The notes: generated by a model not told the origin, from the letters alone. A DNA stretch of 39,975 nucleotides from a virus (IMGVR_UViG_3300043447_000338:1-39975), one strand, 5' to 3'; counted from the stretch's first letter, positions 3,809 to 37,375 are shown. Numbers and translations are program-made.

Positions 3809-4468
3809 TTATGGGGCGACTGCCCAAACACCCTCTCCAGCAACCATCGCTCGGCCACTGCGATTGAGATACCCACCGCTGACTGCTGCATTGTTAGCCA
3901 CAGCGCCCGCCGCCACAAGGTAGCGCGTGCCCTTGTTGGTGCCGTAGCCCGTGCCCAACATTACAGCGCGGCCCTGGGGGCCTACAGTAAGCGTAACACT
4001 GCCGCCAGTGCCCGCGCCCATTTCAGTGGGTAGAGCGACTGTTGGCGCACTTGTAAATGAGCTGCCTTCGTCGGTCACATCCACAGCCGTGATGGCTCCG
4101 CCCGCTACTGTAATCTGTACTTCGCCAGCCCCTACAGCCCCGCCTCCGGCCGTGCGCACTAGGAATACGCCGTTGGTGTAGCCAGATCCTGCCACAAAGG
4201 TGGCAGGTGCAGTGATCACGTTCCCGAGATTAGAGTCACTGTTTGAGCTGCCCGCGCTAGATTTTACGCCCCCGCCAATGCGAATGGGGAGTGCATCTGC
4301 TGCCGTGGCAGAGAAGTTGCTCTGTGAAACACCAGAGCGAAGAGTGCTGATGCCGATGCCTGTGGAAAGTCCGCCCTCGCCCCCCGCCCAGCTACCTGCT
4401 GCGCCCTTGCCTCGGCCCTCGATAGATACGTCTGCGAACACGCCACTCATCGTAAATGATGCTGCCAT
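3809..4468 (-). CDS. Gly/Ala-rich virion protein (capsid decoration or head fibre)
   Basis: 219 aa directly after the capsid gene; GSGYT and VTDEGSSFTSAPTV beta-repeat motifs common in fibre proteins. Confidence 0.55.
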   Translation of the reverse strand: MAASFTMSGVFADVSIEGRGKGAAGSWAGGEGGLSTGIGISTLRSGVSQSNFSATAADALPIRIGGGVKSSAGSSNSDSNLGNVITAPATFVAGSGYTNGVFLVRTAGGGAVGAGEVQITVAGGAITAVDVTDEGSSFTSAPTVALPTEMGAGTGGSVTLTVGPQGRAVMLGTGYGTNKGTRYLVAAGAVANNAAVSGGYLNRSGRAMVAGEGVWAVAP

Positions 4469-4483
4469 TTCAAGCTCCTAAGA

Positions 4484-4506
4484 AGGAGCCCCGCCTGAGC
4501 GGGGCT
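4484..4506 (-). terminator. Hairpin / putative intrinsic terminator after the major capsid gene
   Basis: AGCCCCGC-CTGA-GCGGGGCT stem-loop just downstream of the capsid stop; T-tract is weak. Confidence 0.5.
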
Positions 4507-4511
4507 GTGTG

Positions 4512-5486: not shown

Positions 5487-6548
5487 TTAAACTTTTGAAA
5501 GTTGCTTCATTGATGCCATAAGTGTTGATCTTATGTCATCGCCCATAGGTTCTGAAGTGTCATTCGGTGCGGCTGTTGAGGACAGGCTGGCCGATGCTTC
5601 TTGTGCTCGTCTTGCTGCGGCAGTCGCTTCGCTTACAGCCTGGGCGCGGGTGCGCTGTTCTACAAGTTGACCGATCTGCGGATGGCGCATAATAGCACGG
5701 TTGTAGGCCGTTTGCAAGCTCATTTGTATGCCGTGCTTAGCGGCGCCCTCCAACAAATCGGCTACATCGTCGCGCACATCGGCAAAGAACTCATTTTTGG
5801 GGTCTGCCTCAAACTGCTCGATTTCAGACAACACGCCCGTGTGCATTTCCTCAGCCTGTGCGGCCTTCCGTTGCTGAAGTTCCTGCATGAATTGTTTTAC
5901 AGGGGCAAGCTCGTTCTGTAGCAAGCTGTGCACGTGAGACATAGGATCCTGTGGCGCAGCAGTGCCCGACACTCGAGAAGTCAGTTGCTGGTCCAACAAG
6001 TTAATGTCAACGCCGAATTGTTGAACAATATCTGCTATCAACGCAGCGCGTTGTGCGGGGTGCCCCGTGCGCAGGGTGGCCGCTACTTGCATCATATTGG
6101 ACACCGTCTGTATCGGCGTTCCACCATCTTGCTGAATGAAGTGTGCGTAGGGGCTAATCACGGCCCCAAACTCTTCCGCAAATCTACGTGCTTCCGCAGA
6201 AGCGCGCAGGGTAGAGTTTATCTCTAATTCTCTGCGCTTAACTTCAGCTTTAATTTCTGGGTCTAGAGAAGCCCACTTCTCTCGAGCCAATGGCTTCCAA
6301 GACGCGGGTGTCCACGTATCCTCTACTGGGGGAGGTGTTACGGCTGGCGCAGATGCCTCAGTAGGGGGAGTCACCTCTGCCGGTGGGGCTGTGGGGGCCT
6401 CAGTAGGCTGCGGCGCCTCCTGTGCAGGGGCGGAGTCATCTAACTTTGCAGATTCTGTAGGGCCTGGAGAGTCCTGCGCAGTCTGCTCTGAAAGAGACTC
6501 CTCTAGGTCTTTACGCAAAGATTCTGCGGTGTTTTCTTCTGGATCCAT
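5487..6548 (-). CDS. Capsid scaffolding protein
   Basis: 353 aa; acidic Pro/Ala-rich N-terminus, PASWK..W motif and helical C-terminus; immediately upstream of the capsid gene. Confidence 0.7.
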   Translation of the reverse strand: MDPEENTAESLRKDLEESLSEQTAQDSPGPTESAKLDDSAPAQEAPQPTEAPTAPPAEVTPPTEASAPAVTPPPVEDTWTPASWKPLAREKWASLDPEIKAEVKRRELEINSTLRASAEARRFAEEFGAVISPYAHFIQQDGGTPIQTVSNMMQVAATLRTGHPAQRAALIADIVQQFGVDINLLDQQLTSRVSGTAAPQDPMSHVHSLLQNELAPVKQFMQELQQRKAAQAEEMHTGVLSEIEQFEADPKNEFFADVRDDVADLLEGAAKHGIQMSLQTAYNRAIMRHPQIGQLVEQRTRAQAVSEATAAARRAQEASASLSSTAAPNDTSEPMGDDIRSTLMASMKQLSKV

Positions 6549-6559
6549 TTACTTCTCCT

Positions 6560-6952
6560 TTAATTATTGATTGCGGTGTAGACTTGCTTAGCGACTTCTG
6601 TGTGAAGTTCTTTGTCTTGGAAGGTGGCGGTCCTCAGTTGCTCTCGTTGCACCTGCTGCTCTTTCCAAGAATTTGTAAAATCTGACGTCATGGTCAGATT
6701 ATTTCTCTTCATATACTCTCTGTGTTTGGTTCTAGAGCTCAAATCCGTACCGTCTTGGGCCTGTAGCCCGTCATAGTGTCTGTCCCCCGCCAGGGCATTG
6801 GCAAGCCCACTCATCGCAGGTACGACTGACAACTTGCGTTCCATAGCCCCGTGACAGCTAGGCGTGGCAGGATTGCGCGAGTAGTCCCCAATTGATTGAA
6901 ATGTGGACGCTTCTTGTCCACACAGTGGGCACTTGTAGTCGTATGTGGGCAT
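6560..6952 (-). CDS. FmdB-family zinc-ribbon protein
   Basis: MPTYDYKCPLCG...CHG N-terminus; C-terminal SRTKHREYMKRNNL. Confidence 0.7.
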   Translation of the reverse strand: MPTYDYKCPLCGQEASTFQSIGDYSRNPATPSCHGAMERKLSVVPAMSGLANALAGDRHYDGLQAQDGTDLSSRTKHREYMKRNNLTMTSDFTNSWKEQQVQREQLRTATFQDKELHTEVAKQVYTAINN

Positions 6953-8798: not shown

Positions 8799-8799
8799 G

Positions 8800-14407: not shown

Positions 14408-14490
14408 AAAATACACGGGGGCGGTGGGTAGAGGTTTTAGTTTCGGTGGGGGTCTCCTCCCCCGGGGGCCAAGGCGCTCCAGGCCCCCCA

Positions 14491-14610
14491 GTTAGTACTT
14501 ACTTACTTACACCGCACGGCGGCCCTAAGTTAGTGGGCGCTAACTAACTTAGGGCCCCAAGTTGGTGCGTAGCGTGGCCCTAAGTTAGTGGGCACTTACT
14601 AACTTAGGGC
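14491..14610. repeat. GTTAGT-N8-ACTAAC palindromes, including two near-identical 13-14-bp-stem hairpins
   Basis: GGCCCTAAGTTAGT-GGGCGCTA-ACTAACTTAGGGCC (14521-14556); GCCCTAAGTTAGT-GGGCACTT-ACTAACTTAGGGC (14577-14610); degenerate copy at 14491-14510. Confidence 0.85.
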
Positions 14611-14647
14611 TGGGTTAGTGGGGTTTTGTGTAACAAGGTGTTACGGC

Positions 14648-14930
14648 GGTGGCACCTGCCACCGGGCGGGCGGGGGCGGGTAAGTTGTTGTTTTGTAAGG
14701 GTTTTGCCCCCGTGGCAGGCCATTTTGGCGGTGGCAGGTGGCAGGTGGCAGGTGCTAAAAGTTGCCAAAACTGCTGTGCGTGTGCGTGCGCGCACACATA
14801 GGCAGGCGTACATACACACATATTACTTTATAAATTTAACTGCCACCTGCCACCCCTACACAAAACACGCCTTACAAAACAACAAGTTAGCGCGGTTACG
14901 GGTGCCAGTGGCAAGTTGTGGCAAGTGCCC
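14648..14930. other. Putative replication origin: inverted iteron arrays around an AT-rich core
   Basis: GGTGGCA tandem repeats (14730-14753) and inverted TGCCACC copies (14840-14854); perfect 16-bp inverted repeat 14685-14700/14870-14885; AT core 14821-14840; lies downstream of the primase-helicase gene. Confidence 0.55.
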
Positions 14931-14959
14931 CCACCTTACCACCCGCCACCAACAGGCGT

Positions 14960-14983
14960 AAAAAAGCCCGCGCAGGGCGGGCT
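14960..14983 (-). terminator. Intrinsic terminator after the 106-aa gene
   Basis: Minus strand AGCCCGC-CCTGC-GCGGGCT followed by a T run. Confidence 0.8.
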
Positions 14984-15004
14984 GGTGTGGTAGTGGGGGT
15001 GTGC

Positions 15005-15325
15005 TTACTCTGCCGCAGCTACAAGATAGCCCTTACGCACCGCGTAGCCCACAAAGTGGCTAGGTACGCCCTGCTCAACAACCTGGGCCACTGTGGCGGG
15101 GCCCTGTGCCAGTGCCTTACCAATAATGGCCCACCATGCGTTGTTGTGCTCACAAGCCACCTTGTAGGGCTTAGGGCCCATTACAACGCGCAAGGTTGCG
15201 TTTTTAGGCTGCTTAGCTACCTGGGCCTTAACTGGCACGCTTGGCGCTGCCAAAAGCCCGCTAAACGGGGTTGTAGGTGCCACAACAGTTGCTGCCTTAA
15301 CTTTGCTGTTTGCTTTAGTTGCCAT
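15005..15325 (-). CDS. Small basic protein (106 aa), putative DNA-binding
   Basis: SD AAAGG, own terminator; contains no Asp and only 3 Glu; C-terminal similarity to 26671-27123. Confidence 0.7.
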   Translation of the reverse strand: MATKANSKVKAATVVAPTTPFSGLLAAPSVPVKAQVAKQPKNATLRVVMGPKPYKVACEHNNAWWAIIGKALAQGPATVAQVVEQGVPSHFVGYAVRKGYLVAAAE

Positions 15326-15494
15326 TTTGTGCCTTTACATTGCCACCAAACAGGGCGGCTAGCTGGTGCATACCACTTGGTTGCACAGTTGCTATTATGC
15401 ACTCAGGCACCATTAGTACCATAAGGGTAAACCCTACAAATTGTAATAATGTGTAACTGCGCTATTGCCACCACACGCCCGCATGGTGTAGGCA

Positions 15495-15556
15495 CTTGTT
15501 AGTGGGCATTTACTAACAAGCCCATTGCCCTTATTTGTTGGTAAGCACACACTAAC
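15495..15556. repeat. Two further GTTAGT-N8-ACTAAC-type palindromes
   Basis: CTTGTTAGT-GGGCATTT-ACTAACAAG (15495-15520) and GTTGGT-AAGCACAC-ACTAAC (15537-15556). Confidence 0.7.
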
Positions 15557-15571
15557 TGCTGTCAACTGTGG

Positions 15572-17638
15572 TTAAAGCCCGCCGCCAAGCTTGCCGCAGT
15601 GGGCGTCCCACTGGCGCTTGACTCGGTCGGAGTCCCACAAGTCGATCTTGTCTCGGTCTGTAAGAATCCAGAACCGTTTAGTTGCACCGTTGATTTTAAC
15701 CTTCACCGTGTTAAAGCCTACCTCCTGCATGCGCTTGCCCAGGGCTATCTTCAACCCAGGGGACACATGAGCACCAGCATCCCCACTCAGGTAAGCCCAC
15801 GCAAGCTGTTCACTCGTCAAGCACTCCGCCCCTAGCAGTACAGGTGGCAGCACCTCAGTAGGGTCGGCCCACAGAGTGCGCACCCACTGTTCCATGCTGG
15901 AGCGGGTCGAGTCCGTCACAAACTCTTTAGCTTCCGTGTGCGGAGCGCGTCCGTGGGGGTCGAATCCTGTAAGGTCCACCTGTAGTAACCAGCCGTACAG
16001 GGCGCCAGCACCGCCGCCCTGTACCCAGGCAAAGTAGTCATCCCAATAAGTAGCATCAAATATAACCTGCGTGGGCGTTTTGCAGTGGATGACGCATGCT
16101 CTACGATCTCCATCGTCCAACTTTATAGAGTCACTGTAATTGCTGGTGCTCACTAAATTGAGGCAATTGCGAGCTTCATACTCTTCTCGCCCCTTGGCGT
16201 TGACTGTAAGTGTGGGCGCGGTGATCAGCATTTTGAGTTTGTTGGTCAGTATAAGAGCATCTTTGTCATTCCCACCCTGCACCTCGTCCAAGTTTACAAA
16301 TTGACGAGAGGCGTAGACCTGATTGAAGTCGGACACAATACGTTCTTTGCCCAGACTAATCGCATTCTCGCCGTAGATTTCCAATATGGGAGTGAGTGCA
16401 GCATTCTTCCCACACCCGCTGGCCCCGTACATGTGGATAAATTGGCCTGTTTTGGCCCCTAAATTCTGCAATGGGTAGGCAAACCACTGGTAAATCCAGC
16501 GTCTAAGGTCAGCATCTGGACACAACTGCTCCCATAAGCGCTGCCACGGCTCCGCACTGCCGCCCGTGGGTTCCACACCCATACCGCACCACAAGTTAAT
16601 CAACTCTCCCTCAACCAGTGGAGGGTCTCCAGGTGAGTATTCCAGCCGTTCAACTTCCTTACGCCCAGGCCATTGCAGCCACACGCGGGGCACATTCACC
16701 ACCTTCTCCCCTGTCTCGTCTGGGGCGGTGTAGTGCGCGTAGTTGACGCCACAAAAGTCCTGTGTGGACATTAACACATGCGTGCGCTGATCCACCACTT
16801 TCTTTAATGAGCGTACAATACACACTTCCTCATTCAATTGGAGGCGTAGACTCTCCAATTCGCCAATGCCAACCTCCACGGCAGCGTCTAGGCCAGCTAA
16901 AAACGCAGCGCCAGCATCAAAGCCAAGGTGGGCGCAGTAGTCGTCAAAGCCCCAATCTGCCGCAGCCCACTCAGCGGGGGGTTTGGGGAGTAGCAAATGT
17001 TGGACTTTTACCTTACAAATGAGGCTCATGCGCGCAGCAAAACGCCTGATGGCGAGGGCTACGTCGTCATTCGTGGCAGCATTAGAGTCGAAGACTACGA
17101 CGCATTTAAGCTCTTTCTCCCGCCAGGGCAGGTCACGGAGCGCGGGGAGCAGTGGGAGCTCGTTGGCCTTGCTGCCCCAGCCCCACACGCCATTCAGCCC
17201 CACGCTGTAGGTGCCGCATTTAGCGCCAGCAATCGCCTTGATGCAGGACTCTTGAATGTAAATGGTGCTACCTTGGGGAATATTTGTCCAATCCAGCGTG
17301 CGGGGCAGGTAGGCGCAGGGTGGGTATTTAGGGGGGCAGTACATTTTGCCCCGACTCTTTGGCGCGGCGGCAGCCCAACCGGTGGGCGGGGCAAGCTCAA
17401 CTAGACGAGCACTCCACCAATCTTCCATCTCTCCACGCACGTTGTGGTGGGTGAATACTGCGGCTGCTCGGTCATCATACAGCTTGCCAATGTCAGCACA
17501 GCGTAGAATGCGAATGTCGTGAGCATCTATGTCTTCCCGACTGACGCCTCGTTCTCGTAGGTAGGCGTAAACCCTATCAATTCCTATTTCATTCTCTGGT
17601 GTAGGTAGCTCAGGCAGGTCTTGGGCGCGGTAGTTCAT
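15572..17638 (-). CDS. Primase-helicase (DUF3854-like TOPRIM + D5-like SF3 helicase)
   Basis: IQES.IKA, GLNGVWGW, VVFDS and GFDDY TOPRIM motifs; Walker A GASGCGKN, Walker B NLDEV, STSN and DRR. Confidence 0.85.
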   Translation of the reverse strand: MNYRAQDLPELPTPENEIGIDRVYAYLRERGVSREDIDAHDIRILRCADIGKLYDDRAAAVFTHHNVRGEMEDWWSARLVELAPPTGWAAAAPKSRGKMYCPPKYPPCAYLPRTLDWTNIPQGSTIYIQESCIKAIAGAKCGTYSVGLNGVWGWGSKANELPLLPALRDLPWREKELKCVVVFDSNAATNDDVALAIRRFAARMSLICKVKVQHLLLPKPPAEWAAADWGFDDYCAHLGFDAGAAFLAGLDAAVEVGIGELESLRLQLNEEVCIVRSLKKVVDQRTHVLMSTQDFCGVNYAHYTAPDETGEKVVNVPRVWLQWPGRKEVERLEYSPGDPPLVEGELINLWCGMGVEPTGGSAEPWQRLWEQLCPDADLRRWIYQWFAYPLQNLGAKTGQFIHMYGASGCGKNAALTPILEIYGENAISLGKERIVSDFNQVYASRQFVNLDEVQGGNDKDALILTNKLKMLITAPTLTVNAKGREEYEARNCLNLVSTSNYSDSIKLDDGDRRACVIHCKTPTQVIFDATYWDDYFAWVQGGGAGALYGWLLQVDLTGFDPHGRAPHTEAKEFVTDSTRSSMEQWVRTLWADPTEVLPPVLLGAECLTSEQLAWAYLSGDAGAHVSPGLKIALGKRMQEVGFNTVKVKINGATKRFWILTDRDKIDLWDSDRVKRQWDAHCGKLGGGL

Positions 17639-17748: not shown

Positions 17749-17783
17749 CACGCGCCGTAGCTTGTAAGCTGCAACGCCCTTAC

Positions 17784-17813
17784 AGTGTAGGCCAATACCT
17801 TGTTGGTGGGCAA
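17784..17813 (-). promoter_or_regulatory. Putative sigma70 promoter toward the primase gene
   Basis: TTGCCC-N18-TACACT on the minus strand. Confidence 0.4.
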
Positions 17814-17824
17814 TTACAGACCGC

Positions 17825-17853
17825 TTGCACGCCGTTTTGGACTGCCCTATACT
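17825..17853 (+). promoter_or_regulatory. Putative sigma70 promoter for the rightward early operon
   Basis: TTGCAC-N17-TATACT, 40 nt before the ATG at 17893. Confidence 0.65.
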
Positions 17854-17892
17854 GGCCCCGCCGCTGTGTAGCGGTGTAAATGGAGTATTCTA

Positions 17893-19122: not shown

Positions 19123-19124
19123 AC

Positions 19125-19808
19125 GTGATAGCTCTACTGTTCTCTGGAGGCAAAGACTCTAGGCTATTGCTAGAGGGCTTTGCCCCTTTTTTAGACCAAA
19201 TTACAGTCGTTTGGGTAAACCCAGGCGACTACCTGCCTGATGATGAGGCGTATGTAAGAGACTTACTTAGCCAATGCCCGCACCATACAATCATAGACTC
19301 CGATGTCAAAAGTCACATCAAAGCTTGTGGCTGGCCTGTGGACGTTGTGCCTGTAAACTGGACCGTGCCCGGACAAATAGGACATGGCAAGCGACCTTTT
19401 ACGTTTCAACCGTACACTGAATGCTGTGCTCACAATATTTGGAAGCCACTGAATGACTGGATTGCAGCCAATGGCGTGACTAAGGTGTACACAGGCCAGC
19501 GGAACGACGAAGAGTTCCACGACCGTAGACGGGAAGTGAAATCTGTTACCCACAATGGCGTAGAGTGGGTGAGCCCACTTGCTAACTGGACAGAGGCTGA
19601 GGTGTGGGCTGCCCTGCACCGCTTGCAGCGGCAAAAGGGCTTGCAGGTAGCCCCTAGCTATTTACGAGGCGCCACCGCCAGCGTAACATGCGCCCACTGC
19701 ACCGCCTACAGGCCCAAGGCCAGGGGGCGCGTACTGCCCCAGCAAATACAGTCTACAGTGGATGCCGCGCTACTTGCCCTCCACTTAGCAATTAAGGAGT
19801 CCATGTAA
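19125..19808 (+). CDS. PAPS-reductase-family (PP-loop) protein
   Basis: FSGGKDS PP-loop, CC pair, GQRNDE, PLANWTEAEVW and CAHC. Confidence 0.85.
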   Translation: MIALLFSGGKDSRLLLEGFAPFLDQITVVWVNPGDYLPDDEAYVRDLLSQCPHHTIIDSDVKSHIKACGWPVDVVPVNWTVPGQIGHGKRPFTFQPYTECCAHNIWKPLNDWIAANGVTKVYTGQRNDEEFHDRRREVKSVTHNGVEWVSPLANWTEAEVWAALHRLQRQKGLQVAPSYLRGATASVTCAHCTAYRPKARGRVLPQQIQSTVDAALLALHLAIKESM

Positions 19809-22257: not shown

Positions 22258-24066
22258 GTGATAACGTTTGACTTTGAAACTGAAGCTATTGTAGGCAACC
22301 CCATCCACAACCCACCCAAGCCCGTGGGCGTCGCCATTCAGCACGATGGACAAGCTCCGTTTTACCTTGCATGGGGCCACTCTATAGGTAATAACTGTAA
22401 TTTTGAGGAAGGACGGCGCACCCTGCTTGGTGCCCTCGCCATTGCTGATGATTGGTGCTGCCACAACGCGGCGTTTGACATGGCAGTGCTCCAGAAATGG
22501 ATGGGAGTGAGTGCCCCTAAAAACTGGCTCAATTTACATGACACTCAATTCCTTGTATTTCTACATGACCCCTACGCCTTCAGCTTCGGCCTTAAGCAAA
22601 GCGCGGAGCGCATTCTAGGGACGCCGCCAGATGAGCAAGAGGCTTTACGAGACTGGGTTATGGCCCATGTGCAGGGTGCAACGCTTAAAACCTGGGGTGC
22701 CCACATTGCCAAGGCCCCTGGCACGCTGGTGGGCCAATACGCCTGCGGGGACGTAGCCCGTACCTACGCCCTGTGGGCTAAGCTACACCCCAGCATTGTG
22801 GAGCAGGGCATGCAAGCAGCTTACCAGCGAGAGCAGCTACTCATGCCCATCTTGTCCGAGTCTAGTAGGCGCGGTGTGCGCGTCGATCTTGAGAAGTTGG
22901 AGGCGGCAATTGAAAAATACACGGCGGCTAAAGAAAAAGCTGAGCAAAGCATATTCGCCACGCTTGGAGAGTTCAACATCGATTCTGATAGGGAGCTGGC
23001 GGAGAGACTGGCAGCTAAAGACCAAGTCACCGAATGGGTGCTCACCCCGACTGGCAAGCGGTCGACAGCACGGAAAAACCTCGTGGGTAGAGTCCGCGAT
23101 CCTGGACTCCTTGATGCCCTCGCATATCGCGGTATTCTTGCAACCTGCCTCGGCACCTTTGCCGAACCTTGGGCTCTGGCCGCACGTGAGAACTCTGGAC
23201 GCCTACACCCTCAATGGAATCAAGTACGTGGTGATAGGGGGGCTGGCGGCGACTTGTCCGGCACGCGCACCGGGCGCATGTCGTGTCGTGACCCAAACCT
23301 TCAGAACATCCCAAACGACTTTGAAGGAGTCACCGTCCCAGATGGGCTGCCTCCACTCATCCACATGCGAGAGTTCCTTTTACCTGAGGAGGGACATGTC
23401 TGGGTCAAGCGAGACTTCAGCGCGCAAGAAATGCGAATCATGGCGCACTTTGCAGAAGGTAAGCTGTTTGACGCATTCCTAGCCGATCCGGCCACGGACC
23501 CTCACAAGACAGTGCAGCAGCTGATCAAGGACATGCTGGGCATTGACATGCCGCGTAAGTACGTCAAGATTACAGGCTTCGGCATTATGTACGGTCGAGG
23601 CATCCCCAACCTATCCGCCGCGTTGGGCGTACCTGTGGATGAGGGCAAGGCTGTGCGAGATGCCTACTTTGCCGCCCTGCCAGAGATTAAGCGCATGTCC
23701 GCCGAGATTAGAGACATTGGGCGGCGCGGCCAGCCGATTAAAACTTGGGGCGGGCGCAAATACTTCCGCGAGCCTGACCCCACAGGACGAGACCTGTCTT
23801 ACAAACTGTTCAATTACCTTATTCAAGGTAGCGCGGCAGACCAGACAAAACAGTCACTCATTGACTGGGACAGTGCCAGATTTAAAGATCATCATCTTAT
23901 CGCTGCCGTACATGATGAAATAAACATCTCCGTACCCGAGGATCAGGTAGAGGTGGGAATGCAAGCTCTTAGAGAGTCTATGGACTGGTCACGTTTTGAC
24001 GTGCCCTTTATGAGCGAAGGCTACACTGGCCCCAATTGGCAAGACCTGGAGAGCTACGATGACTAA
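22258..24066 (+). CDS. Family A DNA polymerase with 3'-5' exonuclease
   Basis: Exo I DFET, Exo II HNAAFD, Exo III YACGD; TGRMS..PNLQN, motif A DFSAQEMR, motif B RKYVKITGFGIMYG (Phe at the E. coli 762 position), motif C VHDE. Confidence 0.95.
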   Translation: MITFDFETEAIVGNPIHNPPKPVGVAIQHDGQAPFYLAWGHSIGNNCNFEEGRRTLLGALAIADDWCCHNAAFDMAVLQKWMGVSAPKNWLNLHDTQFLVFLHDPYAFSFGLKQSAERILGTPPDEQEALRDWVMAHVQGATLKTWGAHIAKAPGTLVGQYACGDVARTYALWAKLHPSIVEQGMQAAYQREQLLMPILSESSRRGVRVDLEKLEAAIEKYTAAKEKAEQSIFATLGEFNIDSDRELAERLAAKDQVTEWVLTPTGKRSTARKNLVGRVRDPGLLDALAYRGILATCLGTFAEPWALAARENSGRLHPQWNQVRGDRGAGGDLSGTRTGRMSCRDPNLQNIPNDFEGVTVPDGLPPLIHMREFLLPEEGHVWVKRDFSAQEMRIMAHFAEGKLFDAFLADPATDPHKTVQQLIKDMLGIDMPRKYVKITGFGIMYGRGIPNLSAALGVPVDEGKAVRDAYFAALPEIKRMSAEIRDIGRRGQPIKTWGGRKYFREPDPTGRDLSYKLFNYLIQGSAADQTKQSLIDWDSARFKDHHLIAAVHDEINISVPEDQVEVGMQALRESMDWSRFDVPFMSEGYTGPNWQDLESYDD

Positions 24067-27123: not shown

Positions 27124-27207
27124 AGAAGAGGGTGGCCGTAACTCCCCGGCTGTGCAAGCGAGCTCTGGCAGCACTCGTCCTTCGCAACGCTCCATAAATT
27201 ACATATC

Positions 27208-27232
27208 AGCCCCACTGAGCAGTGGGGCTTTT
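27208..27232 (+). terminator. Intrinsic terminator
   Basis: AGCCCCACTG-AG-CAGTGGGGCT-TTT. Confidence 0.7.
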
Positions 27233-27248
27233 GTTTGGAGAAATTAAA

Positions 27249-28028
27249 ATGGAAGTGTTTATTCTAACGCATGGGCGGGCTACAGGGGCGCAGCAGCACA
27301 CCGCAGCCGCATTGCTCGATGCCGGCATAGCTTTCAAGTATGCGGTGCAAGAGAGCGAACTGCCCAAATGGTCTTGGTGTAGTGCAGAGATAGTAGTCCT
27401 GCCTCCACACATAAAAGATGTTTCCGCCACTCGTGACTATCTTGTTCATGATGTGGGTGGGGACGCCCACATCTTTATGTTTGACGACGATCTGCGATTC
27501 GCTGCCCGCAGAGACGACGATGCCACTAAATTCACCCCAGCAACTTCCGCAGATCTATTTTCTGCCCTTGAGCGAGTCAATATAAATTTGTCCATCAATC
27601 CGATGGTTGGGCTGGGCGCCCGTGAGGGGGGCAACCGCGTCACCGATCAATGGGTGTATGAGACTCGTATCATGCGAGCCTTTGGGCTGAATAGAAACTA
27701 CCTGCGTCGACACGAGATAACATTTGCTCCACTCAAGCTAATGGAAGACTTCCACGTCAATTTACAGATACTTGAGTCTGGGAAAACTACAAGCGTCTAC
27801 AATCTTTTGGTGACCGATCAAGTAGGCGGCTCTAATTCTGCTGGCGGGTGCAGCACCTACCGCACGCCTGAACTACAGGAAGCTTCCGCCAATCTGCTGG
27901 CAGCCCGCCACCCCGGTGTTGTGAAAGTGGTGAAGAAAACCACCAAGGGCGCATGGGGCGGGGGCACCCGTACTGATGTGATTGTGCAGTGGAAGCAGGC
28001 TGCCAAATTTGCGAGGAACAGAGTATGA
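27249..28028 (+). CDS. GT-A glycosyltransferase of the TET-associated (TAGT) / base-J glucosyltransferase-like family
   Basis: FILTHGR, SATRD, FMFDDDLRF (DxD), MEDFHVNLQIL, GGCSTYR and V.WK motifs; SD GGAG, start ATG 27249. Confidence 0.8.
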   Translation: MEVFILTHGRATGAQQHTAAALLDAGIAFKYAVQESELPKWSWCSAEIVVLPPHIKDVSATRDYLVHDVGGDAHIFMFDDDLRFAARRDDDATKFTPATSADLFSALERVNINLSINPMVGLGAREGGNRVTDQWVYETRIMRAFGLNRNYLRRHEITFAPLKLMEDFHVNLQILESGKTTSVYNLLVTDQVGGSNSAGGCSTYRTPELQEASANLLAARHPGVVKVVKKTTKGAWGGGTRTDVIVQWKQAAKFARNRV

Positions 28029-28873
28029 GAGCCATGAATGCTAGTGATCTTGCCTATTGGATTGTTGAACGTGACCTTATGCGTGAGCGGAAAGAATATC
28101 CAGACAATCCACGCCCAGAATGGAAGTGTGGCTGGAGTGATGACCCCCACATGGGGCTGATTCGCTATTGCAACGTGCGCCGTGAGGATGACAAGGTAAC
28201 CCGCTGGCTTGCCAAGCACTGGCGCCCACAGCACAACAGCATGTGGGAGCTGACCCTGGCACGGATGCTAAACCACATCCCCACTCTAGAAATTTGCCTG
28301 CCCCTGCTACAGTGGCAAGACCCATTGAAGGGAGTGTTGGGCGAGCTAAAGCTGCTGCGCGCTACGGGGGAGAAAGTCTTTACTTCCGCCTACACCATCA
28401 GCACGGCAGGCAAAAGCATGGATAAGCTTGACTACGTGGTGGACTGGGTGGTGGGGGCAGTGAAGTGCAGAGAGATTGCTAGTGGCTACAAGCCTAAGCG
28501 GCTGGCGGAGGCTGCCGCGTGGCTGGAAGATTTTGATGGGTTGGGTAGCTTTTTGGCTGCCCAAGTAGTGGCGGACGCTAAAAACACCCCCAGCAACCCC
28601 CTAAAAACCGCGCCAGACTGGCAAACATGGTGCGCCCTAGGCCCAGGTAGCTTGCGCGGCCTTACGGCGCTGCGTGGGCGTAACGTAACGGCAAGGTATT
28701 TCCAAAAAGAAATATTCTCCGCCTGGAGAGAAGTCAAACCTATGCTGCCTACCCATCTACAAGACCTGCACATGCAGGACTTCCAAAACTGTCTCTGTGA
28801 GTTCTCCAAATACGCCAAAGCCTTGAACGGAGAAGGGAGGCCCCGCAATGGCTATAACGCTGGGAGAGGCTAG
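28025..28873 (+). CDS. aGPT-PPlase clade 1 / 5hmdU-DNA-kinase helical-domain family (HhH-glycosylase-like fold) thymine hypermodification enzyme
   Basis: WIVERD..R, D....YCNVRREDDKVT.W, GLGSFLAAQVVAD, GPGS.RGL and DFQNCLCEFSKY. Confidence 0.8.
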   Translation: MRAMNASDLAYWIVERDLMRERKEYPDNPRPEWKCGWSDDPHMGLIRYCNVRREDDKVTRWLAKHWRPQHNSMWELTLARMLNHIPTLEICLPLLQWQDPLKGVLGELKLLRATGEKVFTSAYTISTAGKSMDKLDYVVDWVVGAVKCREIASGYKPKRLAEAAAWLEDFDGLGSFLAAQVVADAKNTPSNPLKTAPDWQTWCALGPGSLRGLTALRGRNVTARYFQKEIFSAWREVKPMLPTHLQDLHMQDFQNCLCEFSKYAKALNGEGRPRNGYNAGRG

Positions 28874-29042
28874 ACTATGGGGAGAGGTACACGGGGCATT
28901 GAATCTCGCAGTGTCTTGGTATGATGGCACTATCTCACTTCACCAATTCATAAGTGAGACTGAAATGGATGTGTTCTGTAAGAAACATCAGTTAACTTTT
29001 ATTGAGGAGAGTAGCAATGACGACAGCAATATTGAAGGTTAG
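28848..29042 (+). CDS. Hypothetical protein within the modification cluster
   Basis: 64 aa, SD GGGAGG; overlaps both neighbours. Confidence 0.5.
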   Translation: MAITLGEARLWGEVHGALNLAVSWYDGTISLHQFISETEMDVFCKKHQLTFIEESSNDDSNIEG

Positions 29043-29985
29043 GAACGTAGAGCAAGCTTTGTCCGACGGCTTTTGGTGGCTGCGCGCAGCCGGGGTGCCC
29101 GAAAACAGCCGTAACGGCCCCGTTCTGGTGTCTCCAGGCCCTGTGGTTACGGAGTATTCTCACCCCACAGAGCGCGTACTATTCAATGCCCGTAGAGATG
29201 CGAACCCCGTATTCCACTTGGTGGAGGCTCTGTGGATGTTGGCTGGCTTGAACGATGTCACGTTCTTGGAGCCATACAATGCGAATATGCGTACCTACGC
29301 AGAGCCTGACACAGACATTATTCATGGCGCGTACGGCTACAGGTGGCGCACCCTGTTTAATGTGGACCAGCTGACCCTAGTGGTGAATCAACTGGTGGCC
29401 GACAGGGAAACGCGGCGTGCCGTTGTGCAGATGTGGTCTGCTGCGGATGATCTATACAAAGATAAGGTGGATGTGCCATGTAATACGCAAATCTATTTCG
29501 ATTTGCGTGGTGGCGTGCTGAACATGGCTGTGTGCAACCGCAGTAACGACATGCTGTGGGGCGCCTACGGCGCAAACGCGGTGCACTTTAGCGTGTTGCA
29601 GGAGGTTATAGCTGCCGCCGTGGCTGCCCCTGTGGGGGTGTACAGGCAATTTAGCAATAACTTCCACGTCTACACTGAGAATGAGATGGTGCAAAGCTTC
29701 CTAGAAGTGCCACCATCCATATCATTTACAGCATACCCAGGCGGAGCTGTGCCCCTTATTCAGCCATCAGAATCCTGGACTAGCTTTCTGGCAGATTGCC
29801 GAAAGCTATTCTACACGGACACCGGCGTTTTTGCCACAGAATTTATCCAAGACATTGCCTCTCCACTGATGCGGGCATATATCTATAGGAAGGAACGGGG
29901 AGTACTACCCCCTTACGTGTCCAGCATTCCCACATGTGACTGGAAACTGGCATTTCAAGAATGGGTAGCAAGGAGAGAAGCATGA
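29017..29985 (+). CDS. Thymidylate-synthase homologue, probable dUMP hydroxymethylase
   Basis: RDANP.FH..EALWML.G, HGAYG.RWR, DQL, TRRAV, PCN (catalytic Cys), RSNDMLWGAYGAN (Asn, consistent with dUMP specificity), NNFHVY; SD GAGGAG. Confidence 0.85.
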   Translation: MTTAILKVRNVEQALSDGFWWLRAAGVPENSRNGPVLVSPGPVVTEYSHPTERVLFNARRDANPVFHLVEALWMLAGLNDVTFLEPYNANMRTYAEPDTDIIHGAYGYRWRTLFNVDQLTLVVNQLVADRETRRAVVQMWSAADDLYKDKVDVPCNTQIYFDLRGGVLNMAVCNRSNDMLWGAYGANAVHFSVLQEVIAAAVAAPVGVYRQFSNNFHVYTENEMVQSFLEVPPSISFTAYPGGAVPLIQPSESWTSFLADCRKLFYTDTGVFATEFIQDIASPLMRAYIYRKERGVLPPYVSSIPTCDWKLAFQEWVARREA

Positions 29986-32603: not shown

Positions 32604-32763
32604 AGTTTGCGAACTCACTTTGCGTCATCGTTGGCCCGGCCTGTGTAGGCTGGGCCGCTGTCTGTATGGGGGGCGCGTCCAGTGCGCTGCGGCTAGCAAG
32701 CGCCTTACCTGCTGCGCCCGCGCCGCCTGGGCCAAGTAACTGTAAACGGGTTGCTGTATCCAC
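32503..32763 (-). CDS. Possible small gene after the endolysin
   Basis: GTG start 7 nt after AAGGAG; overlaps the convergent ORF by about 100 nt. Confidence 0.3.
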   Translation of the reverse strand: MDTATRLQLLGPGGAGAAGKALASRSALDAPPIQTAAQPTQAGPTMTQSEFANSTRSSAAQLAARQRKLAQLLREREAALAPPPAY

Positions 32764-32767: not shown

Positions 32768-33892
32768 TTACTCCTTAGTGTGGCTCATAATATCTGTCTT
32801 ACGTTGACTGGATGCACTGGTGCCGAACCAGAATGATTGAATGCCCCCGGTCAACAACCCGCCAAAAATGGCCCCCAGTACCATAGCTTTCATGTCATTA
32901 GAGAAGCCTGTCAAGAATAGTACCGCATACGCTGCCCCGTACACAAGGGGCAGCAGGCTCACAGTAATCCAGAAAGCTGGAGACTTCCAAAATCCCGTTG
33001 ACTGCACCACAGCATCCGCCCGACGGGCTCCCTCGATGCCCCCACCTCCTGACTCTGTTAGCTGCCACCACTGTTCTGTGATGGCTTGGCTGGCGGTCTG
33101 CAGGGCGGCGGGGTCCGCTTTAATAGTCTCTACGGCATCTTGCGCGTTCTTTGCACCTACGGCATTCTGTACAATCTGTACCGCAAGCTCCGCAGCTTTG
33201 ATGTTTCTCTCGGCTACATCAGAGCCTGACCCAAATAGCTTGCCAAGCTGGGGAATGGCGGCAATGATAGAGGGCAGCGCGGCTGCTACGAATGCAGGTA
33301 ATGGCATGGATTGCTCCTTTGGTGTTGCAGTGACTGTGGGGACCAGGGCTTTTAGCGCTCGCTCCCAACGAGCTTTACGATCCTCATACCCGTTAAGCCC
33401 CCCATTTATCCTGCGGGTAATGGTTTCAAAATCTCCGGCATCTGCCAAGGCGCTGAGCTTTTTGTCATCCCAATAATCGGCCGCACTAAGCGCAGCCCAG
33501 CGGGGGGCAGTAAGGGCTTCAGGGTCTTGCTCAAAATCTGGCACATCCTCAAAACGAGCCCGCAACCTGTCCCGTACGCGGGCGTAGTTGTAGCGCCCGG
33601 TGGTCTGTATCAGCCCACGCCCACGGTAACGAGAGCCATCCCCGGGGAAGACATTCCCTAAATCTGCGCGTCCCTCATACCGTTGCTGCGCAGGAGTGGG
33701 GCCCCATATCTCGCTCACATGCTTTAAAGACCCAGACTCGTGACCTATCTGCGCCAGGAATGCTGCCACCCGCTGCGGCGTGTTTATGGCGTAGGTGGCG
33801 CAAGCCAGCGCCAGCGGCTGCGCAAAAGCTGCCGCCGCCGTTGGGCTACAGGCGGTAGCGGCCACAAGCAGGTCGGCAGTTAGTGTAATCAT
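32768..33892 (-). CDS. GH19 (chitinase/lysozyme-like) endolysin fused to a C-terminal holin-like membrane domain
   Basis: AAFLAQIGHESG, YRGRGLIQTTGRYNY, ITRRINGGLNG; C-terminal hydrophobic helices ending FWFGTSASS.RK. Confidence 0.85.
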   Translation of the reverse strand: MITLTADLLVAATACSPTAAAAFAQPLALACATYAINTPQRVAAFLAQIGHESGSLKHVSEIWGPTPAQQRYEGRADLGNVFPGDGSRYRGRGLIQTTGRYNYARVRDRLRARFEDVPDFEQDPEALTAPRWAALSAADYWDDKKLSALADAGDFETITRRINGGLNGYEDRKARWERALKALVPTVTATPKEQSMPLPAFVAAALPSIIAAIPQLGKLFGSGSDVAERNIKAAELAVQIVQNAVGAKNAQDAVETIKADPAALQTASQAITEQWWQLTESGGGGIEGARRADAVVQSTGFWKSPAFWITVSLLPLVYGAAYAVLFLTGFSNDMKAMVLGAIFGGLLTGGIQSFWFGTSASSQRKTDIMSHTKE

Positions 33893-34179: not shown

Positions 34180-34955
34180 GATTGTGGTCCAAATTCCTCA
34201 ATGATTAAGAACCCAGGGGCGCCGTCCCCTGCCTTGGTCAAGTTGGCCTGGATAGTTGCTGCCCCCTGCCCACCCCCACCACTGCCAAACCCGCCGCCGT
34301 TGGTGGCTGTGCTAAGGGTGCCCGTGCCGCCCGTGCCGCCATTGCCCCCTGTGCCAAACATGCTACAGCCGCCGCCGCTGCCGCCGTTGTGGATGCCTCC
34401 GTCATTTGACGTGCCCGCCGTATTTGGCCCCGTGGCGCCATCACCTTGGTCTATGCTGCCAGGGAGGTGACCGGGGCCGGAGGATGTAATCGTTCCGCCC
34501 AAGCCAGGCCCGCCAGTGCCCCCAGGCACTGCGCAGGGGTTGCCCCCCACGCCTAAGGGGGCGCAGGTGCCGGAGTTACCGATCGTATTGAATGTGACCT
34601 TGCCCCCAACAGCCCGTAAAAAGCCGAATATGGTGTCCCCACCGGGGGTGGACGCTGGTGTCAGCGCTCCGGCGGCTATGCCCACCCCGCCAAGGCCTAC
34701 TTCGTAAGCTACAGAGCCAGCTATGCGCAGGGTGAACTCCAAGTATTCACCTGCTCCGCCGCCAGGGCCCCCTTTATATGGACCCGCGCCACTCCCTAAA
34801 TCTGCCGAGCCGCCTGCTCCGCCCCCCGCCTGCATCCGCACGCGAACCCAGCTATTGGCTGCCAGAGGGGTGAATGTGCCGCTGCCGGACAAGTATGTGA
34901 GTGTGCGGATGGGCTTGCCCCCGCCACCATTGACGAATTGTGAACGTAAGGTCAT
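34176..34955 (-). CDS. Glycine-rich tail fibre protein
   Basis: SGTFTP, GGGAGG and GGGAG motifs, C-terminal G.DGAPG..IIEE; start ATG 34955 overlaps the previous stop. Confidence 0.7.
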   Translation of the reverse strand: MTLRSQFVNGGGGKPIRTLTYLSGSGTFTPLAANSWVRVRMQAGGGAGGSADLGSGAGPYKGGPGGGAGEYLEFTLRIAGSVAYEVGLGGVGIAAGALTPASTPGGDTIFGFLRAVGGKVTFNTIGNSGTCAPLGVGGNPCAVPGGTGGPGLGGTITSSGPGHLPGSIDQGDGATGPNTAGTSNDGGIHNGGSGGGCSMFGTGGNGGTGGTGTLSTATNGGGFGSGGGGQGAATIQANLTKAGDGAPGFLIIEEFGPQS

Positions 34956-35749
34956 GTCGTAAACACCCATCCTCTCGTCAACGTGCCGACAATCGTAAAG
35001 CTGTCGTAGTTAACATTCAAAGAACAATCTTCAGCGAAGCCTTCAATTAGACTGGCTCCGCGCTGCATATTTACAGGGAAGTCGGTTAGTTTGCCGCCCA
35101 CGTCGGTTACCTTAATCCACGCCCCCTCCACCAAGGCAGGCAGCGCAAGGGAGAACCCGCCACCAGTAGAGTCTATCATGTAGGAGCGGCGCAGTTGTAG
35201 CGTAGCTGCACTAGTCAAGGGGATAGGTGCACCATCTAGATCTGCCCACTGGGCGACGCCTGCAATGGTCTTGATTATCTTATAGTCTTGCCCAGCTTGG
35301 GCGGGCAGCACTGCGCTGAATGCTAGATTATCCGCATAAGCTTTTGTGACTAGATCTGTGGGCACGATAGGAGCATTCGTACAACGAATTGTGTCGAATG
35401 TGGCGATGCCATCTACTGTAAATGTATCACCATAGAAGTCAAAGGTTTGGCTTGTGATTTCCCAAACATTCACTCCCTGTACCACAGCAGAAAAAGCGCC
35501 CGCGCTGAGGCGGGCAAACCCCGAGCTACTTTCGTTACCGAAAGTAATTCCCGGAGCTGGCAGTGTGCCGTCTGCCAGTTTAAGTGGACTGAGCATGCCG
35601 CCCCGCCCTTGGCGATCTAGGCTCTCAGTAATTCCTTGGGAAATGTCGTTGACTGAGGTGTTAGCCCACTCAGCCGTGATCACCGTTCCTGTGACTACAG
35701 GATTTACATTTGATGGAGGCGTAAATACGCCTTGTGAATTGCGGCCCAT
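34952..35749 (-). CDS. Tail fibre / fibre adaptor protein
   Basis: N-terminal podovirus anchor NPVVTGTVITAEWAN...DI...T.SLDRQG; TKAYAD repeat; DSTGGGFSLALP domain. Confidence 0.7.
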   Translation of the reverse strand: MGRNSQGVFTPPSNVNPVVTGTVITAEWANTSVNDISQGITESLDRQGRGGMLSPLKLADGTLPAPGITFGNESSSGFARLSAGAFSAVVQGVNVWEITSQTFDFYGDTFTVDGIATFDTIRCTNAPIVPTDLVTKAYADNLAFSAVLPAQAGQDYKIIKTIAGVAQWADLDGAPIPLTSAATLQLRRSYMIDSTGGGFSLALPALVEGAWIKVTDVGGKLTDFPVNMQRGASLIEGFAEDCSLNVNYDSFTIVGTLTRGWVFTT

Positions 35750-37375
35750 TTAATCCTCCAATACAGCAGGGGCAAGCCCCGCGCCGTAGCCACGGCGCAC
35801 TAGGTCGGCCAGTAGCTTCTGTTTGTTGGTCTCGCCAAATAACATCTTAGCCCCGCCCGCCGTTTGGCCGATAGCGCTGGTGCCGTACAGGCCAGCCAAG
35901 CTGGGGGCTACTCCTGGAATGCCGTAGGCTGTGGCTGCCCCCGCCCCAGCCAGTGGGGCGCTCACCCGCATGGCAGACACTAGCTGGCTGCGAGACTCAT
36001 TCATGGCGTGGCTTGGGCCGAGTATGCGGGCAGCGGGAGCTATCAAATCCTCTAATGTAGAGTTAGAGGCCATGTTCTTTTTGGCGTAGGCGTTGGTCAG
36101 TGCGGGGATGCTCAGCCCCTCAAGCTCCCCACGAATGCCCTTGGTGGCCTCCTCTAGCCGCTTTACGTCGAAGTGTTTGCTGTCCAACACACCAATCCGC
36201 TCAAGCTCGTCAGGAGTCAGTTTAGTGTTGCGCACCCGCTCAATCAACACATTGCGGGCTGCTAAAATCCTGTTACGTACTTCGGCAGAACTGCTCTCAT
36301 ACGCTGCGGCGGATAGCTTATTGGTCAAATCTGTAAATTCGGCAGATGAAATCTTTGTGGGAGCACTGTTAAGCTGTGCTGGCCCCAATATGTTGGACAC
36401 TGTGCGACCTGCTTCTTTGGCCTCGTCCGCCATTTGGCCCCGTGCATTCAGTTGTTGTGCAGCCTGCCGAGCCTTAGACAGTCTAGTTCCTGACAAAATG
36501 AAACTTTTGTTTGCCAAAATCTTGTCATACTCTCCGCTCACGTAGTGGCGGGCAGCTGCTAGAGTGTTCTTGCCAGTGTCATCGGCGGCTTCAACCGCCC
36601 CGTCTGTTATCTTTTTCAACAGGGCATTCTGCAATTCACGCTCTTGCCGAGTCTTAACTAGACTAGATCCTGCAGTCAACCCGCCAATAAAGCGGCCCAC
36701 AGCACTGTCCGCCCCTTGCTGCAGAGTGGGGATGATACCTTGACGCATCAGGTCAAGCGCATCCACTTTAGCCTTGAAAGGCTTTGCCAGCGTGGCGAGA
36801 GTGCCGGTCAACCCTCCGCTAAGGCCACCAGCCCAGGCTGCGGACTTAGCTTTGTCCTTTAATGAGCCCTGTGCCGTGGCAAATTCAATGCCAGCGCTAC
36901 TGCCTGCCGCTGCCACTGCCTGGGCAAGCCGACCAGCGCGGCCCGCCTGTAGCGCGCCCTGGAGTTTAGCCCCTGGCACTGCGGTCAATAGCAAATTGCC
37001 GGCGATATTACCGCCCATGCCCGCCTTAGTGTCAAGCAAAGCGGCATCTAGCCTTTTTGCCTCCTCCACAGCATCTTCCGTTTCTGCCGCGCCCTGCTCT
37101 GCAGAAATTGTGCCTGTAGCCTGTGCAAGGCGTTTATTGGGATCTAACTTCTGCTCTAGCCACGTAGCCGGTGCATCAATAAGCTGCTTGACCCCACGCC
37201 CCGCCGCTACTACTGCCCGGCCCATGCCAGCGGCAAAGTTTTGCCCATCAGAGCCTAGTGGAGAGTGCTCAGGTGCCGCTGCCACAGGCTGCGCAGGGGG
37301 TGGGGTGGGGGCAGCCTGTGCGGGCCCCTCTATAATGTAGCGCTTGCCATCGGGCCCCTCGACAATGTACTTCAT
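35750..37375 (-). CDS. Internal virion / ejection protein
   Basis: 541 aa; MKYIVEGPDGKRYIIEGP N-terminus; Ala/Gly-rich helical protein; synteny. Confidence 0.6.
   Translation of the reverse strand: MKYIVEGPDGKRYIIEGPAQAAPTPPPAQPVAAAPEHSPLGSDGQNFAAGMGRAVVAAGRGVKQLIDAPATWLEQKLDPNKRLAQATGTISAEQGAAETEDAVEEAKRLDAALLDTKAGMGGNIAGNLLLTAVPGAKLQGALQAGRAGRLAQAVAAAGSSAGIEFATAQGSLKDKAKSAAWAGGLSGGLTGTLATLAKPFKAKVDALDLMRQGIIPTLQQGADSAVGRFIGGLTAGSSLVKTRQERELQNALLKKITDGAVEAADDTGKNTLAAARHYVSGEYDKILANKSFILSGTRLSKARQAAQQLNARGQMADEAKEAGRTVSNILGPAQLNSAPTKISSAEFTDLTNKLSAAAYESSSAEVRNRILAARNVLIERVRNTKLTPDELERIGVLDSKHFDVKRLEEATKGIRGELEGLSIPALTNAYAKKNMASNSTLEDLIAPAARILGPSHAMNESRSQLVSAMRVSAPLAGAGAATAYGIPGVAPSLAGLYGTSAIGQTAGGAKMLFGETNKQKLLADLVRRGYGAGLAPAVLED

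Follow-up and report, generated by a model that had tools for sequence, protein, structure and literature searches.

Phages with hypermodified thymine, such as M6, YuA, PaMx11, ViI, phiW-14, and SH-Ab 15599, encode a deoxyuridine monophosphate (dUMP) hydroxymethylase and the helical domain of 5-HMUDK, the 5-hydroxymethyldeoxyuridine (5-hmdU) DNA kinase, and a TG or TC context is reported for the hypermodified thymine of such phages in the passages available from PMC6449724, PMC13458397, and PMC8989533. DNA glycosyltransferases of the TAGT/GT-A type and those of base J transfer a sugar onto a hydroxymethyl-pyrimidine in DNA; according to the available passages of bioRxiv 2023.12.21.572611, the TAGT enzymes studied act on 5-hydroxymethylcytosine (5hmC), which is formed by a methyltransferase and a dioxygenase, in a GpC context. 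The viral genome IMGVR_UViG_3300043447_000338 (positions 1-39975; this whole stretch of 39,975 nucleotides is referred to as the window) resembles both groups, since it encodes the hydroxymethylase and the helical domain as well as a protein that matches the TAGT family PF20691. It differs from the M6/YuA type in that the TAGT glycosyltransferase occupies the place expected for the kinase, and from the studied TAGT enzymes in that the glycosyltransferase is paired with a thymidylate-synthase homologue and its context is predicted to be TC. In this genome we found nine dispersed segments of 115 to 178 nt and one block of 1.1 kb that are almost devoid of the dinucleotide TC and its complement GA (TC/GA), and, with a modification predicted from the gene content, we consider it probable that these segments avoid the phage's own mark at TC.

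YuA (1-50000) has no TC/GA tract, and the available passages on phages of the M6/YuA type describe no motif-free windows. In restriction-site avoidance, a short word is selected against, which is seen in synonymous codons; this selection is genome-wide and aimed at host enzymes. The present tracts are alike in the selection on a short word in synonymous codons, but they are local, have sharp edges, and go with a gene of the phage itself. CAjan and iggy likewise modify their own DNA at a two-letter motif, GA/TC on the two strands; they have a TGT/DpdA gene, which is absent here, and the passages available on them (PMC7544227, PMC10484667) mention no motif-free islands. In the full-text literature, with subscription journals largely outside the search, no description of motif-free windows in modified phage genomes was found. 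Windows free of self-modification would be a new kind of element.

An earlier note on this DNA had listed 14 intervals poor in TC/GA and taken them for a second code overlaid on unrelated genes; the lengths and TC/GA counts of all 14 were exact on recount. The synonymous-codon comparison that the note proposed was made on coding runs outside positions 14400-15600 with 300 within-gene shuffles. TC/GA-free runs of at least 50, 60, 80, 100, and 140 nt number 25, 14, 6, 3, and 2, respectively, whereas the shuffles give means of 8.3, 2.7, 0.4, 0.07, and 0 and maxima of 16, 7, 5, 1, and 0; i.e., the tracts exceed the shuffles. None of nine other dinucleotide classes rises above its own shuffle maximum at 80 nt or more; below 80 nt, CC/GG does so at 40 nt, CG at 40 to 60 nt, and AA/TT by a narrow margin at 40 and 70 nt. 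When maximal-segment scores were compared with those of 100 synonymous shuffles, seven coding segments scored at least 10, against a shuffle mean of 0.23 (maximum, 2). These seven and two noncoding segments (starting at 17749 and 32629), to which a codon shuffle is not applicable and which were judged by a composition-corrected test, are the nine robust dispersed segments. The remaining entries of the note (12676-12746, 17293-17353, 36886-36962, and the pair 37191-37248/37270-37328) lie individually within shuffle noise; these four score 5.9 to 7.3, and shuffles yield 5.2 segments of at least 6 per genome. The largest feature, the block at 14479-15606, had been omitted from the list.

The nine dispersed segments and the block contain 17 TC/GA, against 270 expected at the outside rate. 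Outside these ten segments, TC/GA is near normal, with an observed/expected ratio (O/E) of 0.90, and the word is not depleted genome-wide. After correction for local base composition, TC/GA is depleted in 16 windows of 130 nt, whereas none of the nine other classes has more than one such window. The edges of the segments are sharp, and TG, TA, and TT are undepleted inside them. The tracts are real, specific to TC/GA, and in excess of codon shuffles. To call them genome-wide was an overstatement, as the spacing of the ten segments is uneven, the structural genes containing gaps of 11.1 and 9.6 kb, and eight of the nine dispersed segments lie within 17.7-34.4 kb. Two further candidates were rejected: a wider avoided word, because trinucleotides without TC/GA are never depleted beyond a z of -1.7, and a shared sequence motif, because a 20-bp palindrome of the block fits at most three tracts and k-mer counts gave weak words.

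The codon usage within the tracts agrees with the earlier description. In the seven main coding tracts, Ser is encoded by AGY in 15 of 15 cases and Gly by GGA in 0 of 50; in addition, Phe is TTT in 6 of 6 and Ile is ATC in 0 of 5. The residual TC/GA were said to be mostly obligatory Asp/Glu codons; the one at 19666 is an Arg CGA codon. The proteins are Gly/Ala-rich in the main tracts. Homologous codons were aligned for the polymerase (31 relatives), helical-domain (30), and hydroxymethylase (53) genes. The codon-corrected TC/GA O/E of the polymerase tract is 0.12, against a median of 0.95 in the relatives, and the tract is common to 1 of 31; the corresponding values are 0.17 against 0.83 for the helical-domain tract and 0.22 against 1.05 for the hydroxymethylase tract, which is common to none of the 53. 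At the same columns, a synonymous expectation as low as that of this phage occurs in none of the relatives for the polymerase (0/30), hydroxymethylase (0/53), primase (0/5), and TerL (0/4) and in 9/30 for the helical domain. Relative to these homologues, the amino acids in the tracts are shifted off TC/GA-bearing codons, and the notion of a second code over unrelated genes is upheld in this respect. The codon positions are not conserved; just the 28536 tract recurs, being low at the same place in 4 to 6 of 30 relatives. The search for a close relative found L117 (7.3 kb) alone.

The genome, from an uncultured phage, is complete, circular, and podophage-like (138-nt terminal overlap), and its capsid protein is 61-69% identical to the capsids of BUCT555, Mx8, and Mx9. 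In the survey of sequencing runs, the stretch was present in one run, and no RNA run was among those listed. That run gave one contig with even depth over 10000-29999, although it may be the sequence's own source and so is not independent. An assembly artefact was rejected in view of this even-depth contig and of the tracts staying in frame within conserved genes.

The glycosyltransferase, helical-domain, and thymidylate-synthase-type genes adjoin one another on the plus strand. The TAGT-family DNA glycosyltransferase (27222..28028; PF20691, E = 2e-14, 54.4 bits against a cut-off of 27.5; phrog_842) has a DDD motif that is invariant in nine homologues and is the predicted writer of the DNA mark. 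The 5-hmdU DNA kinase helical domain protein (27989..28873; PF18723, E = 5e-26, above the cut-off) matched none of the solved structures in a sequence search. No P-loop kinase partner was found: the YuA gp13 kinase matches nothing in this phage but has matches in G008-G010 and PaMx11. The thymidylate-synthase homologue (29002..29985) is the predicted dUMP hydroxymethylase, with 44-46% identity to YuA gp17 and the PaMx11 enzyme. The RSND motif and the Asn specificity residue (N192) are invariant; the rule that assigns dUMP specificity to the Asn residue is given in the available part of PMC13326640. Among the ORFs scanned, no TET/JBP dioxygenase or C5-methyltransferase partner was matched; likewise, no family match to Pplase2 (amino acid:DNA transferase) occurred among 52 ORFs (PHROGs) and 28 ORFs (Pfam), no dedicated search having been made. 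The simplest reading of this gene content is a DNA in which 5-hydroxymethyluracil would be made and a sugar added later.

The tracts are associated with this cassette. Of 15 near-complete genomes with the glycosyltransferase, 13 have at least one depleted TC/GA window; of 10 same-capsid genomes that lack the enzyme, 2 do (Fisher P = 0.0024, which overstates independence because the glycosyltransferase phages are related and kinship is ignored); a stricter method gives 12/15 and 3/10. The ten comprise seven genomes without the hydroxymethylase and three of the kinase type, and 4 of the 15 glycosyltransferase genomes gave no capsid match. The survey was extended to 155 nonredundant loci of at least 7 kb, shorter or redundant ones being dropped; these loci are related to one another. 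In the 63 glycosyltransferase loci, 48 TC/GA windows were found in 26 loci, the next class having 7, and the pattern extends to large glycosyltransferase phages with a distant polymerase. In the 31 hydroxymethylase loci without the glycosyltransferase, TG/CA leads, with 11 windows in 10 loci, several of them on promoter-like DNA; TC/GA has 8 windows, 6 of them in G005. The kinase-type phages G009, G010, YuA, and PaMx11 have TG/CA or TG plus TC among their top windows, and both TG and TC are described as contexts of kinase-type hypermodification (PMC6449724 and PMC13458397, passages available). The 58 loci in which neither gene was seen have 12 TC/GA windows, 8 of them in L145, L119, L159, and L162, where the cassette may be outside the fragment. 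Because the tracts associate with the glycosyltransferase and phages without it lean to TG/CA, it is likely that avoidance of the phage's own modification at TC accounts for the tracts. The "unmodified windows" of the earlier note are borne out indirectly by this association, and its alternative, that the windows are invisible to defence, is less likely than freedom from the phage's own modification. In addition to the kinship of the glycosyltransferase phages, several observations weigh against this reading: the glycosyltransferase genomes G011 and G016 have no depleted window, a single TC/GA window is present in each of three genomes that lack the cassette, and AC/GT windows, 13 in all, recur in 13 of the 58 loci without a visible cassette.

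Two observations concern the gene that precedes the hydroxymethylase and helical-domain genes. The 63-kb phage G005 carries both of these genes at about 52700-58500 (L035 12658-18501), has another gene, of 302 aa, where the glycosyltransferase would be expected, and has downstream ORFs that resemble heptose-pathway enzymes by eye; since it has TC/GA tracts with another gene in this slot, the helical domain may be what sets the context. In the marine loci L206-L275, an ORF of ~290 aa precedes the two genes, and TG/CA-free windows lie on promoter-like and on phased intergenic DNA.

How phages with bulky base modifications use host enzymes on incoming DNA is poorly explained, and the tracts suggest a model. 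As predicted from the genes, 5-hydroxymethyluracil would replace thymine and then be glycosylated at TC, and on both strands of the incoming chromosome TC would carry the sugar. Promoter use by bacterial RNA polymerase is reported to be blocked by bulky 5-substituents (PMC11550810, in the part available), and a bulky sugar would plausibly hinder the tight wrapping of DNA. Selection would strip TC from DNA that is handled before or without phage help, i.e., the origin, the first gene, and windows of footprint size, which lie along the transcribed early and replication region. When modified DNA enters the cell, the block would serve its origin and first gene, and the dispersed windows would stay unglycosylated, most likely for the DNA-wrapping gyrase of the host. 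The appearance and disappearance of windows at different places in each lineage is expected if any bendable bare stretch of 140 bp suffices. The base made, the TC context, the blocking of binding by the sugar, the service of the block to first gene and origin, and the use of the windows by gyrase are all steps that we infer. Given avoidance of the phage's own TC mark, gyrase is slightly favoured as the main user of the dispersed windows, and the full model, own-mark avoidance plus gyrase, is at best evenly poised. The broader proposal, that hypermodifying phages possess a cis-acting "leave bare" code in which their own two-letter motif is deleted to leave unmodified sites on which the gyrase and RNA polymerase of the host can land, is offered tentatively, as falling somewhat short of an even case; the same caution applies to the joint proposal that the deletion extends even into active-site codons at the cost of acidic residues, with TC as the word of TAGT cassettes and TG as that of kinase-type phages. 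If true, local removal of a motif would be a simple answer to the use of host enzymes, an epigenetic pattern written in the primary sequence. The missing word would reveal the target of each modifying enzyme, so that the sequence context of uncharacterised DNA-modifying enzymes could be predicted from genomes alone. It would also point to base-J-like glycosylated thymine in phages and provide a direct route to ask whether glycosylation blocks gyrase wrapping or transcription of the first gene.

Gyrase is proposed as the user because of the architecture of the elements in the relatives, many of which consist of two TC/GA-free stretches of ~45-50 nt around a short phased core, and because the described gyrase motif spans 130 bp, with a 36-bp core between two 47-bp periodic arms (PMC6379681, passages available). 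The strong gyrase site (SGS) of Mu and the E. coli Topo-Seq motif (PMC6379681 and bioRxiv 2025.10.21.683783, in part) are, like many elements of the relatives, ~130-150 bp long and GC-rich with phased arms, and one element of G001 has a 12-nt word in common with the Mu site. The arms of a strong gyrase site have G+C phased at 10.75 bp. The dispersed tracts measure 115-178 nt here and 106-258 nt in 36 cases in the relatives (median, about 149), the size of a gyrase footprint (~130 bp), although lengths are biased upward because short tracts are harder to detect; this uniform length fits the earlier suggestion of protein-loading sites.

The published gyrase matrix recovers the strong site of Mu at its annotated cut. 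In its phase-only form, from which the preference for base composition is taken out, it shows enrichment over 66 TC/GA-poor segments from cassette phages (P < 0.05 in 12 of them; Kolmogorov-Smirnov [KS] P = 1e-7), with no enrichment at 20 TC/GA-poor segments elsewhere (P = 0.54); the core-only matrix gives no signal (KS P = 0.46), and the signal sits in the arms. Unseeded alignment of the 66 segments yields a phased A-G-C-T profile that correlates with the gyrase matrix at 0.31-0.38 in 10 of 12 starts, whereas 12 unseeded runs on random windows reach at most 0.19. For 18 segments outside the training set, the KS P value is 0.002 with the matrix so derived and 0.018 with the gyrase matrix. The held-out profile places 15223 and 28645, both inside tracts, first and second in this phage, and over 13 listed tracts it gives a KS P value of 0.007. 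Sites picked by the gyrase matrix alone have a TC/GA O/E of 0.76-0.81 if the phage has the glycosyltransferase and of 0.92-0.97 if it does not, and 16 of 115 and 4 of 126, respectively, fall below half the expected TC/GA; the contrast is smaller with the phase-only matrix (0.88-0.93 and 0.96-1.08).

On the other hand, a number of points count against gyrase. Only 2 of the 9 robust tracts of this phage reach P < 0.05 (KS P = 0.12), and against TC/GA-free recodings the seven coding tracts give a combined P value of 0.06 with the gyrase matrix and 0.26-0.37 with three other matrices. The unseeded alignment forced symmetry on the profile, and 3 of its 12 starts were antiphase. Phased A/T-G/C DNA is a general mark of bendability and no label for gyrase (bioRxiv 2020.08.22.262352, passages available). 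Mu has one such site, which is cut in intergenic DNA and is not poor in TC/GA (12 in 130 nt, by eye), whereas the present tracts are many and mostly intragenic. In the kinase-type phage PaMx11 (L277), an intergenic element at about 28086 combines a top gyrase-phase score with low TC/GA. These points are tempered in two ways. Even for E. coli, the gyrase matrix predicts poorly (r = 0.15-0.23; PMC6379681, passages available), and a missing gyrase score is therefore weak evidence. The coding tracts are, moreover, richer in G+C than their recodings in 7 of 7 cases, and gyrase selection is reported to favour GC-rich words (bioRxiv 2025.10.21.683783, in part).

The block (14479..15606; 1128 nt, 6 TC/GA) lies between the stop codon of the primase-helicase gene and the small terminase gene, and its longest run without TC/GA is 531 nt. 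A 20-bp palindromic, operator-like repeat is present in three copies at 14491..14603 and two at 15498-15556, and G001 and L039 have related copies. An AT-rich centre flanked by inverted repeats (14645..14890) is likely the replication origin; similar repeats stand beside the primase-helicase gene in G001, G003, and L119 (by eye). A 106-aa basic gene with a weak winged-helix-like resemblance (15005..15325, minus strand) lies inside the block, followed directly by an intrinsic terminator-like hairpin (14965..14983, minus strand), and is likely the first-expressed gene. The top gyrase-matrix site of the genome has its centre at 15223, in the block. Both-strand TC/GA-free blocks surround the same small gene in G001, G002, G023, L037, and L039, and the homologues in such blocks have no Asp/Glu (G001, L038, and the part of G002 that was read), against 10 and 8 Asp/Glu in those of G003 and G004. 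G003 is TC/GA-poor over ~200 nt only, at the origin-like repeats. Against the assignment to a first-expressed unit, the promoter consensus scan of the block found no match, and this unit is therefore held as likely only. The relatives disagree as to the TC-poor strand around the small gene, which counts against the model as a whole; this strand is mainly the template strand in G017, G019, and L119 and the coding strand in G004. In G004, ~0.9 kb at about 6100-7050 is almost without TC on the coding strand only. TC/GA-saturated stretches (20-30 per 100 nt) adjoin the TC/GA-free block in G001 (33800-34060) and G002 (330-600) and lie upstream of the small gene in G023 and L119; this phage has no such flank. 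The 106-aa protein and a 150-aa basic protein (26671-27123) have look-alike viral clusters in common and Ala/Lys-rich tails, and they may be paralogues.

The dispersed segments differ in their setting and phasing. The first (3882..4023; 142 nt, 0 TC/GA) lies in a 219-aa gene that follows the one for the major capsid protein, with a gyrase-phase P value of 0.013 against TC/GA-free recodings. A 79%-identical relative keeps it at 3 TC/GA per 120 nt, and four-fold sites differ at 11 of 33 within the tract and at 57 of 88 elsewhere in the gene; the low divergence reaches ~300 nt past the tract, to about 3580. The segment at 17749..17883 (135 nt, 2) occupies a divergent intergenic region and has a phase-only gyrase P value of about 0.00-0.01 against GC-matched positions. 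Those in the PAPS-reductase-like gene (19600..19752; 153 nt, 1), at the convergent junction of the replication and lysis genes (32629..32759; 131 nt, 2), in the endolysin gene (33759..33873; 115 nt, 0), and in a Gly-rich fibre-type gene (34252..34392; 141 nt, 0) show no phasing; in the last of these, 300 shuffles give a mean TC/GA count of 8.2 and a minimum of 3. The polymerase segment (22652..22829; 178 nt, 2) lies in DNA polymerase A. The segment in the helical-domain gene (28536..28701; 166 nt, 2) ranks second in the genome by the matrix trained on relatives (gyrase P = 0.03), and that in the hydroxymethylase gene (29521..29663; 143 nt, 2) runs across active-site codons and has no clear phasing.

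A user other than gyrase, namely one of the phage's own proteins (106-aa or 150-aa basic protein, primase-helicase, or terminase) or a nucleoid protein of the host, acting on modification-free windows, is unlikely but has several points in its favour. Seven of the nine tracts are without significant gyrase phasing, and the viral clusters common to the 106-aa and 150-aa proteins and their weak winged-helix resemblance provide leads. The 20-bp palindrome brackets the block and has weaker copies in three tracts (P = 0.013, 0.076, and 0.083; dinucleotide shuffles), but it is missing from the other six of the nine. A phage protein could presumably adapt to the mark and host enzymes could not, and the enrichment of gyrase-like phasing in the relatives also argues for gyrase.

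We regard it as improbable that the tracts are simply bendable DNA, such as strong gyrase sites, in which A-G-C-T phasing lowers TC/GA as a by-product and the modification is irrelevant. Within the elements, TA and GC are raised and GA, AT, and CG are lowered; two of the three GC-rich top gyrase sites of BUCT555 are among its TC/GA-poorest windows, and the PaMx11 element fits as well. However, gyrase-picked sites in phages without the glycosyltransferase are nearly undepleted, and the Mu site is undepleted; BUCT555 has no significant window after composition correction, and CG is not lowered in the tracts of this phage (0.79 against 0.77 in the genome). Such a by-product could neither empty 1.1 kb nor remove acidic residues.

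Still less probable is the avoidance of a host enzyme that attacks TC or GA where the DNA becomes exposed, for which an ADP-ribosylating toxin, a deaminase, or a phosphorothioate or restriction system would be candidates. The one-strand patterns of some relatives would suit single-strand-specific enzymes, and GATC (174 vs 236) and TCGA (100 vs 125) are somewhat underused outside the block; palindromes without TC/GA are, however, equally underused, TCTC, TATC, TGTC, and GAAC are at expectation, and TC/GA as a whole is barely reduced outside the segments. Furthermore, the pattern tracks a phage gene over different capsid types.

Neutral scars of local mutation or recombination, or imported patches, would explain why most tract positions are lineage-specific and why the edges are sharp. 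We consider this origin very improbable, as the replacement of Ser TCN by AGY takes two changes, the G+C of the tracts is above that of TC/GA-free recodings of the same proteins in 7 of 7 coding cases, opposing C-to-T editing, and the 79%-identical relative retains the 3882 tract with reduced divergence, even if the low divergence extends beyond the tract. A mark on the G of GA (7-deazaguanine by DpdA) instead of the T of TC, as shown for CAjan and iggy (PMC7544227, PMC10484667, passages available), can be almost discounted: this phage has a PAPS-reductase-like gene, but the TGT family (PF01702) has no match in its complete genome (0/1; controls positive, 14/14), although a very divergent DpdA could escape. 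The PAPS-reductase-like gene itself was rejected as the cause of the tracts, since G001-G005 have tracts and lack it. Least credible are chance runs in Gly/Ala-rich, Asp/Glu-poor protein segments, which account for the four weak entries and accord with the composition of the tracts but are refuted for the main tracts because both synonymous shuffles and the homologous codons of relatives differ, two segments and most of the block being noncoding in any case.

A role of the tracts as promoters finds no backing, since only one of 34 matches to the sigma-70 -35/-10 consensus lies in a listed tract, and neither the nine robust segments nor the block contain any. This sole match (12690-12719, minus strand) is at the end of terL and faces the portal gene. 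Regular packaging or ejection signals, also envisaged in the earlier note, are at odds with the uneven spacing of the tracts (gaps of 0.5 to 11 kb).

Some minor features were also observed. In this phage, GC-rich runs free of AA/TT lie in scaffold-like or ejection-type genes near gyrase-matrix peaks (6288-6440, 35919-36160, and 37242-37335), with normal TC/GA. In the unmodified relative BUCT555 (L001), GC-rich, AA/TT-free intragenic elements at 9706, 21286, and 32042, ~11 kb apart, are among its top four gyrase-matrix sites. CG-free runs of 40-60 nt exceed synonymous shuffles in this phage, and GGCC, CCGG, GATC, and TGCA are underused, as in ordinary restriction-site avoidance. Finally, the terL match of G004 (7933-9276) contains one in-frame TGA.

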